DNA of 64,000 nt from a virus: positions 12,967 to 76,966 of IMG/VR virus record IMGVR_UViG_3300009124_000007. One strand, 5' to 3'. Shown here piece after piece: positions 12,249 through 33,875 of this stretch. Under the pieces are notes generated by a model. The model saw nothing but the letters and a program-made list of their open reading frames with translations, had not been told where the DNA came from and searched no databases. The position numbers and the translations under genes are program-made. Every line of letters starts with the position of its first letter. Within the stretch, counting starts at the first letter, position 1.

Positions 12249-13081
12249 ACCTAAAAACCCCTCTTCGCTATCCTGGTGGTAAATCTCGTGCCACTAAAAA
12301 ACTCGCACAGTTTCTGCCTGACATGAGTCAGGTTCGTGAGTTCCGTGAACCCTTCCTGGGAGGTGGTTCTGTGGCACTCTACATGACTCAGATGTACCCA
12401 CATATGTCTGTATGGGTCAATGACCTGTATGAACCTTTAGTGAACTTCTGGAAGGTCTTGCAGACCGATGGTAAGAAGATGCGCGATGAACTCGTTCAAC
12501 TCAAGAATCGCCATCCAGATCCTGCATCAGCGAAGGTTTTGTTTCTAGAGGCAAAAGAATATCTACAGCATTCTATCAAGAAGACTGAACCTTTTCATCG
12601 TGCTGTTAGTTTCTATGTGGTGAACAAGTGTTCGTTCTCTGGTCTCACTGAGTCTTCTTCTTTCTCGAATGCAGCATCAGATTCCAACTTCTCGATGCGT
12701 GGCATTGATAAACTGCCCGAATACCAGATGCTGATTCGTAACTGGAAAATCACAAATCATTCTTACACTCAGGTGCTGGGTAATGGGGAAGACATCTTCA
12801 TCTATCTCGATCCCCCATACGATATCAAAGACAATCTGTATGGTAATAAAGGTAATATGCACGCTACATTCAATCACGATACCTTTGCAAAGGATTGTGA
12901 GAATCATGCAGAACGAGTCAAGATGATGGTCTCATACAACTCCAGTCAATTGATTCGAGATCGATTCATGAACTGGCATCCTTATGAGTTTGACCATACC
13001 TATACCATGCGATCTGTTGGTGATTACATGGCAGAGCAACAAGAACGTAAAGAATTGGTACTAATCAACTATGGCATTTGA
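12245..13081 (+). CDS. dam: DNA adenine methyltransferase (Dam/D12 class)
   Basis: LRYPGGKS, EPFLGGGSV, YLDPPY. Confidence 0.92.
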   Translation: MNLKTPLRYPGGKSRATKKLAQFLPDMSQVREFREPFLGGGSVALYMTQMYPHMSVWVNDLYEPLVNFWKVLQTDGKKMRDELVQLKNRHPDPASAKVLFLEAKEYLQHSIKKTEPFHRAVSFYVVNKCSFSGLTESSSFSNAASDSNFSMRGIDKLPEYQMLIRNWKITNHSYTQVLGNGEDIFIYLDPPYDIKDNLYGNKGNMHATFNHDTFAKDCENHAERVKMMVSYNSSQLIRDRFMNWHPYEFDHTYTMRSVGDYMAEQQERKELVLINYGI

Positions 13082-27333: not shown

Positions 27334-28492
27334 CACCTTCCTTAGCGAGGCGGCAAAATCCACAGCAGGACAGCAAGCAGAGAAACTAGGACTTACCCAT
27401 GCTGGGTATGGTCGCTGGATGAACAAACGTGGCGAGGTGACACACATCTCAAAGCAGGGCAAACTGATTCCTATAGCACAACAACCCGAAGTAGCACCAG
27501 ATGGAGGAGAGGCACCAGCACCCGAAGCGCAACAACCCGCTGCGCCAGAAGCACCTGGAGAGGTATCTAAAGGTCCGATTACTATTACTTTTGGAAGATT
27601 CAATCCTCCTACTACAGGGCATGAAAAACTCATTCAGCAGGTAGCATCACAAGCAGGTGATGGTGACTATCGAATCTACCCATCACGCTCCCAGGATCCT
27701 AAGAAGAATCCTCTGGATCCAGAAACTAAGGTGCATTACATGCGCTTGGCATATCCAGATCATGCTCATGCTATCCACAATGATGATAATATGAAGAGCA
27801 TCTTTGATGTTCTTGAGGGACTATATGGTGAGGGGTATAGTGATGTCAATATTGTAGTTGGTGGCGATCGAGTAAAAGAGTTTGATGCTCTCGCTAACAA
27901 GTACAACGGCAAACTTTATAACTTTACCAGCATCAATGTGAAGTCTGCTGGTGATCGTGACCCAGATGCTGATGATGTATCTGGCATGTCTGCATCTAAA
28001 CTTCGTGCTCATGCAGCAGAGAATGACTACGAATCTTTTTCTTCTGGTTTGTCTAAGAACCTAGAGGATAAGCACAAGAAAGAACTGTTTGCACATTTGC
28101 GTGGTAATATGAAGATGGAGGAGGCAGAAGATTTTGCTGAAGCATCTTTTGTTCTTCATGAAGTTGCTCCCAAACTAGATCCTACAAGTTTACGTGAAGC
28201 ATATTACAACAAAGAAATTTTCAAAGTCGGACAGATTGTTGAGAATTTGAACACTGGTGTGATCGGTAAGGTTGTATCACGCGGTGTAAATTACGTTATA
28301 TACATAGATGAGCATGAGGAAATTTATCGCGGTTGGTTGAAGGATCTCGTGGAGAGAAACGACATCAAACGCTTTGATTTTACTCCGCTTGGTAAGATTG
28401 GTACAGATGAACTAGCACATAAAGTTGCTGCTATGACACCTGGACAATTTATTCAGAAGATAAATAAAAGAAACAAAACTGCTGAACGATGA
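27320..28492 (+). CDS. cytidylyltransferase-family (HxGH) nucleotidyltransferase with N-terminal capsid-targeting-like peptide
   Basis: TFGRFNPPTTGHEKL, VVGGDR, MSASKLR; N-terminus MKKFSTFLSE. Confidence 0.85.
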   Translation: MKKFSTFLSEAAKSTAGQQAEKLGLTHAGYGRWMNKRGEVTHISKQGKLIPIAQQPEVAPDGGEAPAPEAQQPAAPEAPGEVSKGPITITFGRFNPPTTGHEKLIQQVASQAGDGDYRIYPSRSQDPKKNPLDPETKVHYMRLAYPDHAHAIHNDDNMKSIFDVLEGLYGEGYSDVNIVVGGDRVKEFDALANKYNGKLYNFTSINVKSAGDRDPDADDVSGMSASKLRAHAAENDYESFSSGLSKNLEDKHKKELFAHLRGNMKMEEAEDFAEASFVLHEVAPKLDPTSLREAYYNKEIFKVGQIVENLNTGVIGKVVSRGVNYVIYIDEHEEIYRGWLKDLVERNDIKRFDFTPLGKIGTDELAHKVAAMTPGQFIQKINKRNKTAER

Positions 28493-29532
28493 ACTACGAA
28501 GCACTGCCTGGAATGGAAGAAGCACTAAGACTAGTGCAAGAAAAGAAGATGAGCAAAGAAGCTCATAAGAAAGCTGCTAAGGCGGGCAAGCGTTGGCAGG
28601 ACTCCGATGGTGACGGTAAGTGGTATGAACCTGGTGAGGATGTAAAAGAAGCAAAGAAGGATGACACATATCTGGAAACGGATATGAAGAAGCGCCAAGC
28701 AAATAACGAGAAGGCTCGTAAGGAACTTGCAAAGGGTCCTCAAATGAAGAACCCACACTTTGAAGAAGTCCAACTAGAAGGTGTCCGTGACACTGACCCA
28801 GAGAAGGGCACTGAAGAGAGAAAGGCACGTCTTGAGAAGAAGCGTGGCATGAAACTCGATGACCATCCTCAGTATAAGAAGGAAGAGGTTGAACTAGACG
28901 AGAACCGTGCTGCTGCTCGTGCTGCTGGTGGTTATAAGGATGACAGCAAGAAGCAGACCGATCCTTCTAAGGCAGGTTTCACTGGCATCTCTGGTAGCAT
29001 CAAAGACATCATGCGCCAGAACAAAGAGATCGAAGCAGCAAATAAAGCAAAGGCGAAGAAGGAAGAAGTAGAACTTGAGGAAGGTAAGAACAAAGAAGGA
29101 AAAGAGCAGGGTGTTGACGGTAAAGCATGTTGGAAAGGTTACCGCTATGCTGGCACCGAGAATGGTAAGGACAAGTGCGTTCCTGCTAACGAGGAACTAG
29201 AGACCATGGAAGCAAGTCTGCTTGAGTCTGGTCTGTTCTCTGATGATGAAGTACGTTACATCATCGGTGAGAAGTTCGACGAACTTGAGGAACTCTACAA
29301 AGGTAAGCACGGTCAGTCTGAGAAAGAGTATCAGGATGGTCGCTCTGATGGCGGCAAGATGGTTTCGGGTGACAGCAAGCACAGTGGTGCTGCATACTCC
29401 TCCCGTGCTGTCAAGAATAGTGGTCCTAATCCTGCAGGTGGATCTAAGAAACCTCAGGGTCAGGGTCGTATGACTTCTGGTGCTCGTGCTGATCTACAGT
29501 ATCGTAAGGCAAATATGAAGGCAGGTAAGTGA
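28489..29532 (+). CDS. modular Lys-rich protein with repeated EEVxLxE linkers (putative internal head polyprotein)
   Basis: EEVQLE, EEVELDE, EEVELEE separate short basic modules; ATAAATA upstream. Confidence 0.7.
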   Translation: MNYEALPGMEEALRLVQEKKMSKEAHKKAAKAGKRWQDSDGDGKWYEPGEDVKEAKKDDTYLETDMKKRQANNEKARKELAKGPQMKNPHFEEVQLEGVRDTDPEKGTEERKARLEKKRGMKLDDHPQYKKEEVELDENRAAARAAGGYKDDSKKQTDPSKAGFTGISGSIKDIMRQNKEIEAANKAKAKKEEVELEEGKNKEGKEQGVDGKACWKGYRYAGTENGKDKCVPANEELETMEASLLESGLFSDDEVRYIIGEKFDELEELYKGKHGQSEKEYQDGRSDGGKMVSGDSKHSGAAYSSRAVKNSGPNPAGGSKKPQGQGRMTSGARADLQYRKANMKAGK

Positions 29533-31709
29533 TGGCAGACGAAAAGAAAGTCACTGGTAAGCAATCCAAAATCAAAGTCAACCCACGATCTGAAGAAATA
29601 ATGGAACGCAGAACTAATATCGCAAGACAAATCCTCGGCAATAAACTCACAGAAATGAGAGTTGCCGATGACTTTGATCACTTTGCAGCAGATCATTTCA
29701 CTGATGAAGAACTTCTAGAAATCTGCGAAGAAGTTCTCTCAGAAATGAATACTGAAGATCTGGAAGAGATCTGTGAAGCGATTGAAACTAACCTGGAAGT
29801 CATCTCTGAGAGAATGGATCCTAAAGAGATCCAACGTCGTAGAGACCAGGCAAAGGATAGACTTGCAACTGGTGCTGCAATGAAGAAAGCAGCAGAAAAG
29901 TCTGCTGCAGAGAAATCCTCAACCACATCTTCCGATGCAAAACCATCTCGTGCAGAACGTGTCAAGTCTGCTCTCAAGAAAGCTGCTTCGACCACTAAGA
30001 ATGTCGCTAAGAAAGTCGCTAAGGGTGCTGGAGAGGTCGCTGGTGCTGCTCGTGCTGGCTACCGCGATGCTGCGGGTTCCTCATCCTCTGGAAATACTGC
30101 TGGATCTTCTAGTGGTTCTTCTAGTAGTTCTTCTTCTTCCTCTAGTGGCGGTGGGTCATCGTCTGGAGGCAGTGGGGAGAACAGAGTCAGACTTCGTGAC
30201 AGACTGAAAGGTGCTATCAAGAAAGGTGTAGGCAAACTTGCACGTTCAGTATCTCGTGGTGCTCGCAACGTTGCTCGTAAGATGGGTGAAGAAACTGTAC
30301 TTGGTTTCTCCGCATTCATTACTGAAGGCAAAGTCAAGTGTAAGGAGTGTGCTGGCAAAGGTTGCAAGCACTGTGGTGATAAGGGTTACATGGTGACCCA
30401 TGACTGCTCCAAGAAAGTAGAACATGCTGAGTGGGGTATTGGTGAGTGTATTGCTGAGCAGCATACACTAGATGAAGAAGGTAACATCACTCACTACGAT
30501 GTTCAGTTTGAGCATGGTTTGGAAGAGAATGTATCTGTAGAGGTTCTCAAGACTCTTGTCTCTGAAATGCATGAACATGCTATCAACTACGACAAGAACC
30601 AGGAGGTACTTGGCGAAAAAAAGGATGAAGAGGGGTTCGCTGGTGAAGCAACCTCTTACAAAGGTGTAGTAATCAGACGTACCAAGTCTGGTTATGAAGC
30701 ACCTAGATTCAATCTAAAGAGCAATTCTGTCGATGGTATCAAGCAGAACATCGATAAAGAGATTGCTAAGGTTGATGAGTCCTACAAACCAGATGCTGCT
30801 AACAACTACAACGGTCCTCTCTATGCTCCCTGGACTGCTGTGAAGAAAGAAGATGTAGAATATGTTGATGAGGATTCCCGTCGTATGAGCAATAAGCAAC
30901 ATACTGCTCGTGTAAAACAAAACATCAAAACTTTTGGAAGTAATTTCACTCCACCCAATAACTATGACCCCGATGCTAATCGTGGTAAGGGTGAAGTTGT
31001 TACTCGTAAACAGATGGAGAAGAAGCGTCGTAAGGCACTTCGTCAAGAAGAAACTATCCTAGAGCGTGGTGACTATTGGCATCCAGATCCTGAGAAGGAT
31101 AAGAAACTGGGTGGTCCTGGTGCTAACCAACGTGCTCGTGAAGATCGTGGATCTAAATCTTCTTCCTCTTCTTCCTCCTCCTCTTCCGATTCTAAGAAAC
31201 TGAAGCCAGGTGAGTCCTATATGGACTATGCTAAGCGTCAGAAGTCGGGTAAGTCTTCTTATGCGTCCAGTGGTAAGACTGCTCGTGAGCGTCTTCAGAA
31301 AGCAGGTGCAAAATTTTCGACTCCTGCTAAGAAAGAAGGACTCCGTGATAAGATCAAGCGTAAGTTGGGTCTGAAAAAAGAAGAGTTTGCCATGCAGGAA
31401 GGCAGAGCAGAAGATGCACAAGCATCTCTAGCAAAAGTCAAAGCACGTCAGAAGGTTCTCGATGCACATGAGAAGAAGACTGGCAGGAAACTTGACATCT
31501 CTAAGACACCTGAGCACAAAGCACACAAGAAAGAATTCCCTGGTGCTAAACGCACTGGTAAGAAAGTTCCTGGTGCTAAGGAGACTCCTGCTGAAACTCA
31601 GCGTAGACAAACCAATCGTCAGGTTTCTAGGGTCGTCAAGCATGGTTACACTTCTAAAGAAAAGAAAGAAGTTGAATCGATGGCAAAGCATACCTCAGCA
31701 AGAGATTGA
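29529..31709 (+). CDS. 726-aa modular basic protein (putative internal head polyprotein) with an internal -1 frameshift signal
   Basis: Modules bounded by EVISE, AFITE, EDVEYVDE, EETILE, EEFAMQE; poly-Ser linkers; CxxCxGxGCxxC module. Confidence 0.7.
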   Translation: MMADEKKVTGKQSKIKVNPRSEEIMERRTNIARQILGNKLTEMRVADDFDHFAADHFTDEELLEICEEVLSEMNTEDLEEICEAIETNLEVISERMDPKEIQRRRDQAKDRLATGAAMKKAAEKSAAEKSSTTSSDAKPSRAERVKSALKKAASTTKNVAKKVAKGAGEVAGAARAGYRDAAGSSSSGNTAGSSSGSSSSSSSSSSGGGSSSGGSGENRVRLRDRLKGAIKKGVGKLARSVSRGARNVARKMGEETVLGFSAFITEGKVKCKECAGKGCKHCGDKGYMVTHDCSKKVEHAEWGIGECIAEQHTLDEEGNITHYDVQFEHGLEENVSVEVLKTLVSEMHEHAINYDKNQEVLGEKKDEEGFAGEATSYKGVVIRRTKSGYEAPRFNLKSNSVDGIKQNIDKEIAKVDESYKPDAANNYNGPLYAPWTAVKKEDVEYVDEDSRRMSNKQHTARVKQNIKTFGSNFTPPNNYDPDANRGKGEVVTRKQMEKKRRKALRQEETILERGDYWHPDPEKDKKLGGPGANQRAREDRGSKSSSSSSSSSSDSKKLKPGESYMDYAKRQKSGKSSYASSGKTARERLQKAGAKFSTPAKKEGLRDKIKRKLGLKKEEFAMQEGRAEDAQASLAKVKARQKVLDAHEKKTGRKLDISKTPEHKAHKKEFPGAKRTGKKVPGAKETPAETQRRQTNRQVSRVVKHGYTSKEKKEVESMAKHTSARD
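30076..30170 (+). repeat. low-complexity TCT/TCC tract encoding poly-Ser/Gly
   Basis: GSSSSGNTAGSSSGSSSSSSSSSSGGGSSSGG; a second poly-Ser tract lies near 31158-31187. Confidence 0.7.
30601..30657 (+). other. putative programmed -1 ribosomal frameshift cassette
   Basis: AGGAGG(30601-06), 10 nt, in-frame A_AAA_AAG(30617-23), -1 stop TGA(30626-28), stem-loop 30628-57. Confidence 0.65.
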
Positions 31710-32601: not shown

Positions 32602-32964
32602 ATGAACTTCAGCGAACTGAATGCTAATAACTACATTCTGTTCGCCATCAAACATTATGAAAATCCTCAGAGCGTAACGCGAGAGGATTTTGATGAAGAC
32701 ATGAAACGCTTCAAGTATCTCAAGAGATTGTTCAAGAGATACTTGAAGTCTCATGATTTGAGAACTCATCTCATCATCAATCATATTATTATTTTGTATA
32801 ATGTTTTTGGCGAAGCAGCAACACCGTTACTCTTTTTCAAACTGGAAAGGGAGTATTGGCCTTTGCTAAAAACCTTTCTATTATTTTTGAATAAATATCC
32901 TGTAGGCATGTTGCCAGGATTAGATATCGAAGAAGAAATTCAAGAGGAGCTTGATAAACTATGA
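32602..32964 (+). CDS. conserved T4-like hypothetical protein
   Basis: FAIKHYENPQ...DMKRFKYLKRL...HLIINHIIILYNVFG. Confidence 0.8.
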   Translation: MNFSELNANNYILFAIKHYENPQSVTREDFDEDMKRFKYLKRLFKRYLKSHDLRTHLIINHIIILYNVFGEAATPLLFFKLEREYWPLLKTFLLFLNKYPVGMLPGLDIEEEIQEELDKL

Positions 32965-33875
32965 TGACCGTAGGTACTGGTGGTTTTAGTGGTTCCGCTG
33001 CAGCAACTGGACCTGTAGCAGGGTTCGATCCTGTCTTGGATTTTCGTAAGAGAATGGCAAACAAGATCAAAGATCATCCTTATGCCCAGCAGTATAAGGA
33101 GAAGCGTAAGAAAGCAAAAAAACTGAAAGAGGCAATGGATCGCCATGCCCATCAGGTTGCTCATCTCTACCAGTACAAAGTAAACATCCCTGAAGTGGGT
33201 GAAACTATTATCTTCGCATCTTCGCAAGCAGAACTAACAATGAAGATGCGTCTTCTTATCAACCCACGCTATCGTGGTGATGTAAAGATTGATAGAATCT
33301 TCCCTTCTGATGCTGGAAAGTTTTATAACGAAAAGAGAATGAAAGCATATAAAAATCTCCCTGAGCAGATGGAAGATCCTGCAGACAAAGCAGCAGCTGC
33401 TTCGGCAAAGAAAGAGCAAGATGCTGCTAAGAAGGCAAATGATGCTGCTAAGAAACAAGCAGCAGCACTGAAGAAGCAACAGTCGCAGAAAGAAATTGCC
33501 ACCAAGATTGCTGCAGAGAAGAAAAAAATTCAACTGAAGACTGCAGAGATGCAGAAAACACTGCAAACTAAGATTGCAGGCATGAAAAAAGCAGCAGCAT
33601 CTGGCGCATCTACTGGTGGTGTTGCCGAAGAGTTCATGCATGAATCTTCAGGTGGTAACATCGATGCAATCAAAAAGATTGCTGATAGCAATCAACCAGG
33701 TAAGATTACATTCTTGAATGGCGAGAGTTTCCAACTCCAACCAGCAATTGCACAGAAAATTTTCCAAGCATACGAGACACTAGGTATGCAAAGGAACAAA
33801 GCGAAGTTTAGTAATGCTGCAAATGAGAATACACAATCATTCCAAAAGATCTTAGATTTTGTGGGGCAGTCATAA
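32961..33875 (+). CDS. modular hypothetical protein (possible third head polyprotein)
   Basis: GPVAGFDP N-terminal module, Ala/Lys coiled module, C-terminal module after EEFMHE. Confidence 0.65.
   Translation: MMTVGTGGFSGSAAATGPVAGFDPVLDFRKRMANKIKDHPYAQQYKEKRKKAKKLKEAMDRHAHQVAHLYQYKVNIPEVGETIIFASSQAELTMKMRLLINPRYRGDVKIDRIFPSDAGKFYNEKRMKAYKNLPEQMEDPADKAAAASAKKEQDAAKKANDAAKKQAAALKKQQSQKEIATKIAAEKKKIQLKTAEMQKTLQTKIAGMKKAAASGASTGGVAEEFMHESSGGNIDAIKKIADSNQPGKITFLNGESFQLQPAIAQKIFQAYETLGMQRNKAKFSNAANENTQSFQKILDFVGQS

Follow-up and report, generated by a model that had tools for sequence, protein, structure and literature searches.

The closest described counterpart of the element analyzed here is the programmed −1 ribosomal frameshift site of Escherichia coli dnaX, which combines an internal Shine-Dalgarno (SD) sequence, the slippery heptamer A AAA AAG and a hairpin, and in which translation stops one codon beyond the shift (PMC5389563, PMC5009743). 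The presence of a single tRNA-Lys(UUU) is the condition that makes this heptamer highly shift-prone (PMC5009743). The −1 shifts of lambda G/GT and other tail assembly chaperones, and of IS3/IS911 orfAB, also rely on a heptamer and a 3′ structure to set a fixed ratio of two proteins that share an N terminus, but they extend into a second open reading frame (ORF). For dnaX, Larsen et al. are said to have described, in 1994 and 1997, spacings of 10 nucleotides (nt) for the SD and 6 nt for the hairpin. Here we analyze a site of this layout in a stretch of 64,000 nt (positions 12,967 to 76,966 of the IMG/VR record IMGVR_UViG_3300009124_000007), hereafter the window, which comes from a T4-like Synechococcus myovirus of the Kyanoviridae, close to S-RIM14, S-SSM2, and S-ShM2. 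The site lies within a gene encoding a Lys/Glu/Ser-rich mosaic protein (29529..31709, plus strand; 726 amino acids [aa] when read from GTG), with orthologues in the same three isolates. We suggest that a dnaX-type programmed −1 frameshift is the single best explanation for this site, although we hold this view tentatively and give it slightly less than an even chance.

Anatomy of the site and the host machinery

The SD-like motif AGGAGGT (30601..30607, plus strand) is formed by the codons CAG GAG GTA (Gln-Glu-Val, Q-E-V). Its core AGGAGG (30601-06) is followed by a spacer of 10 nt (30607-16; 9 nt when the T is counted with the motif) and then by the heptamer A_AAA_AAG (30617..30623, plus strand). 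The frame of the gene (29529+3k) puts the heptamer in the slippery zero-frame register, inside the codons GAA AAA AAG (30615-23) for E363, K364, and K365. After a slip, the −1 frame reads GGA (30623-25) and then a TGA stop (30626..30628, plus strand), one codon after the shift, so that the predicted product would have 366 aa (365 from ATG) and end in ...EVLGEKKG. An earlier note on this DNA had pointed out the SD, its spacing, the in-frame heptamer, and the immediate stop, all of which we confirmed on the sequence. The downstream stem-loop it described is also present, but the start given for it, 4 nt after the heptamer at 30628, results from pairing the same two arms in another register. The minimum-energy fold, which is the predicted 3′ stimulatory hairpin (30630..30657, plus strand), begins 6 nt 3′ of the heptamer; it comprises 8 base pairs (bp), a 1-nt bulge, 3 further bp, and a 5-nt loop, with G-U pairs among them, and has a predicted energy of −13.5 kcal/mol (z −2.7 relative to shuffled sequences, with 1 of 200 shuffles equally stable). 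The window has a second hairpin at 30669-30694, which, judging by eye from aligned codons, is probably not kept in S-RIM14.

The likeness to dnaX claimed in the earlier note holds for the anatomy: The cyanophage site shares with dnaX the heptamer, the SD 10 nt 5′, the stem-loop ∼6 nt 3′, and the −1 stop after one codon, with spacings that match, and it has in common with it a frameshift product that, as predicted, would be C-terminally truncated, and a host with a single tRNA-Lys(UUU), represented here by a proxy. The two differ in that the cyanophage cassette sits in a mosaic gene unrelated to dnaX, half-way rather than two-thirds through the gene, and in that its hairpin, with its G-U pairs and the energy given above, is weaker. 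Unlike the lambda, tail chaperone, and insertion sequence shifts, the cyanophage shift would truncate the protein at once, and the gene is neither a tail chaperone nor a transposase. A Pfam search with the 726-aa protein found no family; its best PHROG match, phrog_11470, has no function, as is the case for all its PHROG matches, and no AAA+ or DnaX domain was present among Pfam and PHROG matches when DnaX homology was looked for. Likewise, an Rfam search of 30400-30900 (E up to 10) gave no relevant family and left the DnaX frameshift element unmatched. The cassette would work like that of dnaX, yet it lies outside the DnaX family and any Rfam element.

We used the complete genome of the marine Synechococcus MIT S9451 as a proxy for the host, although it may not be the host of this phage. 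Among its 43 typed tRNAs there is one tRNA-Lys(UUU) and no tRNA-Lys(CUU), and no tRNA-Lys was found in the 77-kb phage contig from which the window derives. The 3′ end of its 16S rRNA, GGAUCACCUCCUAA, has a CCUCC anti-SD able to pair with AGGAGGU; written as ...CACCUCCUAA / ...GGATCACCTCCTAA, this 16S 3′ end is complementary to AGGAGGT at 30601-07. As read from its genome, a marine Synechococcus has the host prerequisites of a dnaX-type shift.

In the mechanism that we favor, tRNA-Lys(UUU) would decode AAA and AAG in the P and A sites, while translocation would be impeded by the hairpin, located where the mRNA enters, and by the pairing of AGGAGGU with the anti-SD to the rear of the ribosome. 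Both tRNAs would then re-pair on A AAA AA, GGA would be read next, and UGA would stop translation. A fraction of ribosomes would in this way yield a 365/366-aa protein consisting of the N-terminal modules and a beta-barrel, and the remaining ribosomes would make the full 725/726-aa protein. The earlier note proposed forms of ∼366 and 726 aa; the computed length of the product agrees with the shorter of these, whereas the presence of two products is something we infer from the arrangement of the site, as are the slip itself, its efficiency, and a function for the product ratio.

Conservation and rarity of the site

Orthologues with DNA were available from IMG/VR (L003-L007), from metagenomes (L048-L050), and from the isolates S-RIM14, S-SSM2, and S-ShM2. 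They represent about three lineages: the window together with two metagenome contigs; L006 and L048; and the S-RIM14 lineage (S-RIM14, S-SSM2, S-ShM2, L003-5, L007, L049, and L050). Every one of these orthologues has GAA AAA AAG followed, after a single further codon, by TGA in the −1 frame. These two −1 codons are GGA TGA for the window and L048, and GTC TGA in the S-RIM14 lineage, in which the zero-frame codon before the next GAA has changed from GAT to TCT (Asp to Ser) with its final T retained. The stem is kept in all three lineages, with hairpins of −14.5 and −13.5 kcal/mol in the other two, and the three substitutions within the hairpin span fall in the bulge (30638) and the loop (30644 and 30645), all of them unpaired positions. 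The region is ∼79% identical at the DNA level, and the gene has just two stretches, one of them codons 361-376, in which 10 of 12 codons are synonymously identical. Two further assembled contigs across the site, which are weak evidence, show no difference at 30614-30675 among the differences listed, 26 others being unlisted. On these alignments the cassette is specific to a clade, inside which it appears to be better conserved than the flanking sequence. Heptamer and hairpin, kept in close orthologues, are absent from the distant homologues L051 and L052.

Five loci that extend to the junction or into the module 3′ of it came from a metagenome scan, two degenerate-pattern scans of IMG/VR for that module found nothing beyond six known contigs, and a tblastn search of phage isolates with protein P0014 found no isolate with the P0014 arrangement. 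Among protein homologues, P0002-P0008 are orthologues, P0012 and P0023 carry EAKDED at the junction, and P0009-P0021 combine another upstream module with the same ...ITEKKSEEGFAGEATSYKG.

Deletions near the site occur in some close relatives. In L050:560-700 (Ga0209557_1001967) and in protein P0022, an internal deletion between two EVL repeats has removed most of the barrel domain and the SD-like motif in Q-E-V; the heptamer, −1 TGA, and hairpin are retained. In S-ShM2 (NC_015281.1, about 154300-154390; L070:2600-2700), 2 nt are missing, turning GTAATCAAG into GTAAAAG. The deletion corresponds to 30672-30673 of the window, 46 nt 3′ of the heptamer, and the orthologue is annotated as two ORFs, SShM2_183 (408 aa) and SShM2_184 (281 aa). 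The gene is intact in S-SSM2 and S-RIM14, which belong to the same species. Unless the deletion is a sequencing error, the split in S-ShM2 suggests that linkage of the two halves is dispensable.

We observed a substantial shortage of the slippery heptamer in these phages when counts were compared with synonymous-codon shuffles. In-frame A_AAA_AAG occurs once in the window (79 crude ORFs, 18,802 codons) versus 9.8 ± 3.0 expected, three times in the whole genome of S-RIM14 (16.4 expected), and five times in that of S-RIM2 (14.4 expected), a 3-10-fold depletion (0.1-0.35 of expectation) across these three cyanophage data sets. The nonslippery, codon-aligned register AAA_AAA_G is mildly depleted in the same data sets, at 0.6-0.8 of expectation. 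The window has 31 Lys-Lys pairs with an A before them; 20 of these are AAG-AAA, and the only AAA-AAG is the one in the heptamer at 30617-23. The other elements are also uncommon at such positions. A 42-nt downstream fold of −13.5 kcal/mol or lower follows 3.2% of the 571 Lys-Lys sites in the three data sets, and such a hairpin together with an SD-like match of at least 5 nt is seen only at this site and at its S-RIM14 orthologue (two of the 22 in-frame A_AAA_AAR sites). Moreover, the hairpin beats 97% of synonymous recodings of the same peptide, and its stem includes GGG, a rare codon that accounts for 8% of Gly, and ACC, which accounts for 21% of Thr. As a rough estimate of our own, the chance of finding the cassette in a window is about 1 in 500. 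Elsewhere in the window, a second slippery run, A_AAA_AAA, lies in frame at 33116-33122 within a 304-aa ORF (32961-33875), with AAGGAG 14 nt 5′, a downstream fold of −11.6 kcal/mol, and a −1 frame that stays open for 23 codons.

As a control we considered an in-frame A_AAA_AAG in S-RIM2 (L002:5290-5296; KX349240.1, gene 150002-150859), in a homologue of the C-terminal portion of the window protein. This site is followed by a fold of −16 kcal/mol and by a −1 stop after two codons. Its heptamer is also present in S-MS29 and absent from S-RS29, S-CAM22, S-RIM8, and the window. It is not retained in relatives at ∼75%-83% identity, a distance like that among the orthologues of the cassette.

Gene, modules, and linker

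The IMG/VR contig from which the window is taken is 77 kb long and belongs to a T4-like cyanomyovirus; it has genes for DNA polymerase, a gp41-like helicase, UvsX, gp32, NrdAB, PhoH, psbA, and psbD, and the nearest isolates at the locus (S-RIM14, S-SSM2, and S-ShM2) belong to the genus Ahtivirus. The mosaic gene begins with GTGATG at 29529-29534, in which an ATG at 29532 overlaps with the TGA that ends the preceding ORF (28489-29532). This ATG is likely the true start, giving 725 aa, and is probably translationally coupled to the upstream ORF. A literature search for frameshifting in this gene and for its protein in virions turned up neither, and one paper searched for a proteomic record of the gene group had none.

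The putative short product appears to consist of whole modules. AlphaFold2, run on residues 268-366 with an alignment of 28 sequences, predicted a five-stranded, Tudor/SH3-like beta-barrel with invariant His and Cys (30387..30578, plus strand), with strands at fragment residues 20-83, corresponding to about 287-350 of the protein (predicted local distance difference test, pLDDT, 76 overall). The barrel is followed by the predicted disordered linker INYDKNQEVLGEKKD (30585..30626, plus strand; model residues 86-99, i.e., 353-366; pLDDT < 50), which holds both the SD-like motif and the heptamer. Because the site lies in this linker, directly after the barrel, the short product would end just past a complete domain, with the barrel as its last folded unit. 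The barrel has the pattern H..C..K...G.G...H..D..G...HYD..F.HG and is found with varying partners among cyanophages, including proteins annotated as cytidylyltransferase. Foldseek searches of the PDB returned only weak Tudor/SH3-like matches, the best being the UvrD C-terminal domain (E 0.13). In structure the barrel weakly resembles the Tudor domains with which UvrD, PcrA, and Mfd bind RNA polymerase; searches of BFVD returned cyanophage relatives only.

The site also coincides with a junction between modules. In other cyanophages, the part of the protein that ends at E363 and the part that begins at K364 are each joined to other partners. Similarity to such alternative arrangements is lost at most a few residues from EKK (E363-K365), and some metagenome contigs have 30614 as their first aligned position or 30623 as their last. 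The T4 gp21 protease cuts at the motif [LIV]-x-E. This motif precedes every module junction seen in 28489-31709 and in the homologues (VLGE, EIVE, EVVE, ILDE, QLDE, TISE, KISE, EITE, and FVSE), and a gene for a gp21-type Peptidase_S77 (PF03420) is present in the same genome (G000:6670-7140, E 1.4e-34). In these respects, and judged from sequence, the protein resembles the T4 head internal proteins that gp21 cuts at (L/I)-x-E, its linker reading V-L-G-E/KK; unlike them, however, it has no sequence similarity to IPI-III. The junction motifs and the protease are compatible with the idea, put forward in the earlier note, of a polyprotein with a cleavage linker at the shift site. The linker and the other junctions carry the motif, but we regard so short a pattern, built on the abundant Glu, as weak evidence. 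It is conceivable, although we think it unlikely, that the protein is a polyprotein of shuffled modules packaged into the capsid, and that the cassette ends its translation exactly one dipeptide past an L-x-E site for the prohead protease. The shift would then set the head loading of N- versus C-terminal modules, the former including the Tudor-like barrel, a possible ligand of host RNA polymerase.

Competing explanations and significance

The main competitor of a programmed shift, and one that we consider nearly as likely, is a tolerated coding coincidence. E-K-K is a common linker where modules meet in this Lys/Glu-rich family, the SD-like motif would come from Q-E-V and the stem from the peptide EEGF...ATSY, and any slip would be low-level noise. 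Truncation would be harmless at a domain or processing boundary, and selection against slippery sequence would be relaxed there: In a protein that is cleaved after E363 in any case, truncation three residues later would do no harm, and the slippery site would merely be tolerated. Several observations fit this explanation and weigh against a programmed shift. EKK or KK follows the barrel domain in several unrelated module contexts with nonslippery codons. The SD-like motif stems from conserved Q-E-V codons, and as AGGAGG or CAAGAGG it is found in homologues that lack the heptamer, including those with nonslippery Lys codons (GAR AAG AAA). The motif is weaker in the S-RIM14 lineage, where AAGAGGT (CAA GAG GTA) leaves GAGGT, and a G>A change at 30602, which reduces it to GAGGT as well, is common in metagenome contigs. 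Since a 4-nt SD-like motif is present at only 19 of 56 crude gene starts in the window and internal AGGAGG is not depleted there, the contribution of the SD may be small. The distant L051 and L052 join the same two modules via EVEGELVESQDD with neither heptamer, SD, nor an equivalent hairpin, and other module arrangements (EAKDED, EKKKKLDP, and EKKGLW) also do without the heptamer. The hairpin is modest, and its stem shows no compensatory changes. In S-RIM2, the homologous gene described above has a similar site that is not conserved, and in S-ShM2 truncation near the site appears to be tolerated. The rarity of the heptamer is partly general and not specific to frame because coding A7 runs are depleted in every frame (0.07-0.6 of shuffle expectation in the window, S-RIM14, and S-RIM2). 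With about three independent lineages, statistical power is low, and each conservation test gives p ∼0.03-0.07; nor is the estimate of 1 in 500 decisive, because the site was selected from a very large scan. Coincidence, on the other hand, has to account for the joint presence of heptamer, SD, hairpin, and immediate stop, for which our own arithmetic from independent codon-usage frequencies gives about 1 in 2000, and for rare stem codons that are kept in three lineages with substitutions at unpaired positions only.

We regard the remaining explanations as minor. The 60 conserved nucleotides could serve another role at the nucleic acid level, for example as a hairpin for mRNA stability or processing or, through the short microhomology GAAAAAAAG, as a crossover for module exchange between phages. 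The latter would fit a protein homology that breaks at E363-K365 and a nucleotide homology whose ends lie only a few bases from the heptamer, as in the contigs that begin at 30614 or end at 30623. Nevertheless, such roles do not explain why the heptamer is in frame, why the −1 stop has survived the change from GAT to TCT, or why the SD is spaced as it is, and no RNA family was matched; we consider them quite unlikely. Transcriptional slippage on the A7 run seems very improbable. Messages with an extra A would encode the same truncated protein, an A8 transcript reading ...AAA AAA GGA TGA, but seven A residues are fewer than in the runs known to give efficient slippage by RNA polymerase. No insertion at the run was seen among the differences listed in metagenome contigs, which are DNA assemblies and blind to RNA, and slippage gives the flanking SD and hairpin no role. 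It is, however, a known mechanism in the dnaX gene of Thermus thermophilus (PMC5009743).

Returning to the dnaX-type frameshift, the interpretation offered in the earlier note is partly supported. The anatomy of the site, its conservation among close orthologues, and the host machinery argue for it; the small number of lineages, the distant homologues that lack the cassette, and the origin of the SD as a by-product of Q-E-V argue against it. The same site is carried by the isolates S-RIM14, S-SSM2, and S-ShM2, which makes the frameshift directly testable. If it is not real, the site would be an example of a Lys/Glu-rich linker that mimics a recoding signal. If it is real, it would be a rare copy, outside dnaX, of the full cassette of SD, A_AAA_AAG, hairpin, and immediate stop, found in marine viruses that are abundant as a group and otherwise keep their genomes largely free of A_AAA_AAG. 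It would also mean that picocyanobacterial ribosomes obey the same signals as those of E. coli, and it would provide a first handle on a large, fast-shuffling, and uncharacterized family of proteins in T4-like cyanophages.

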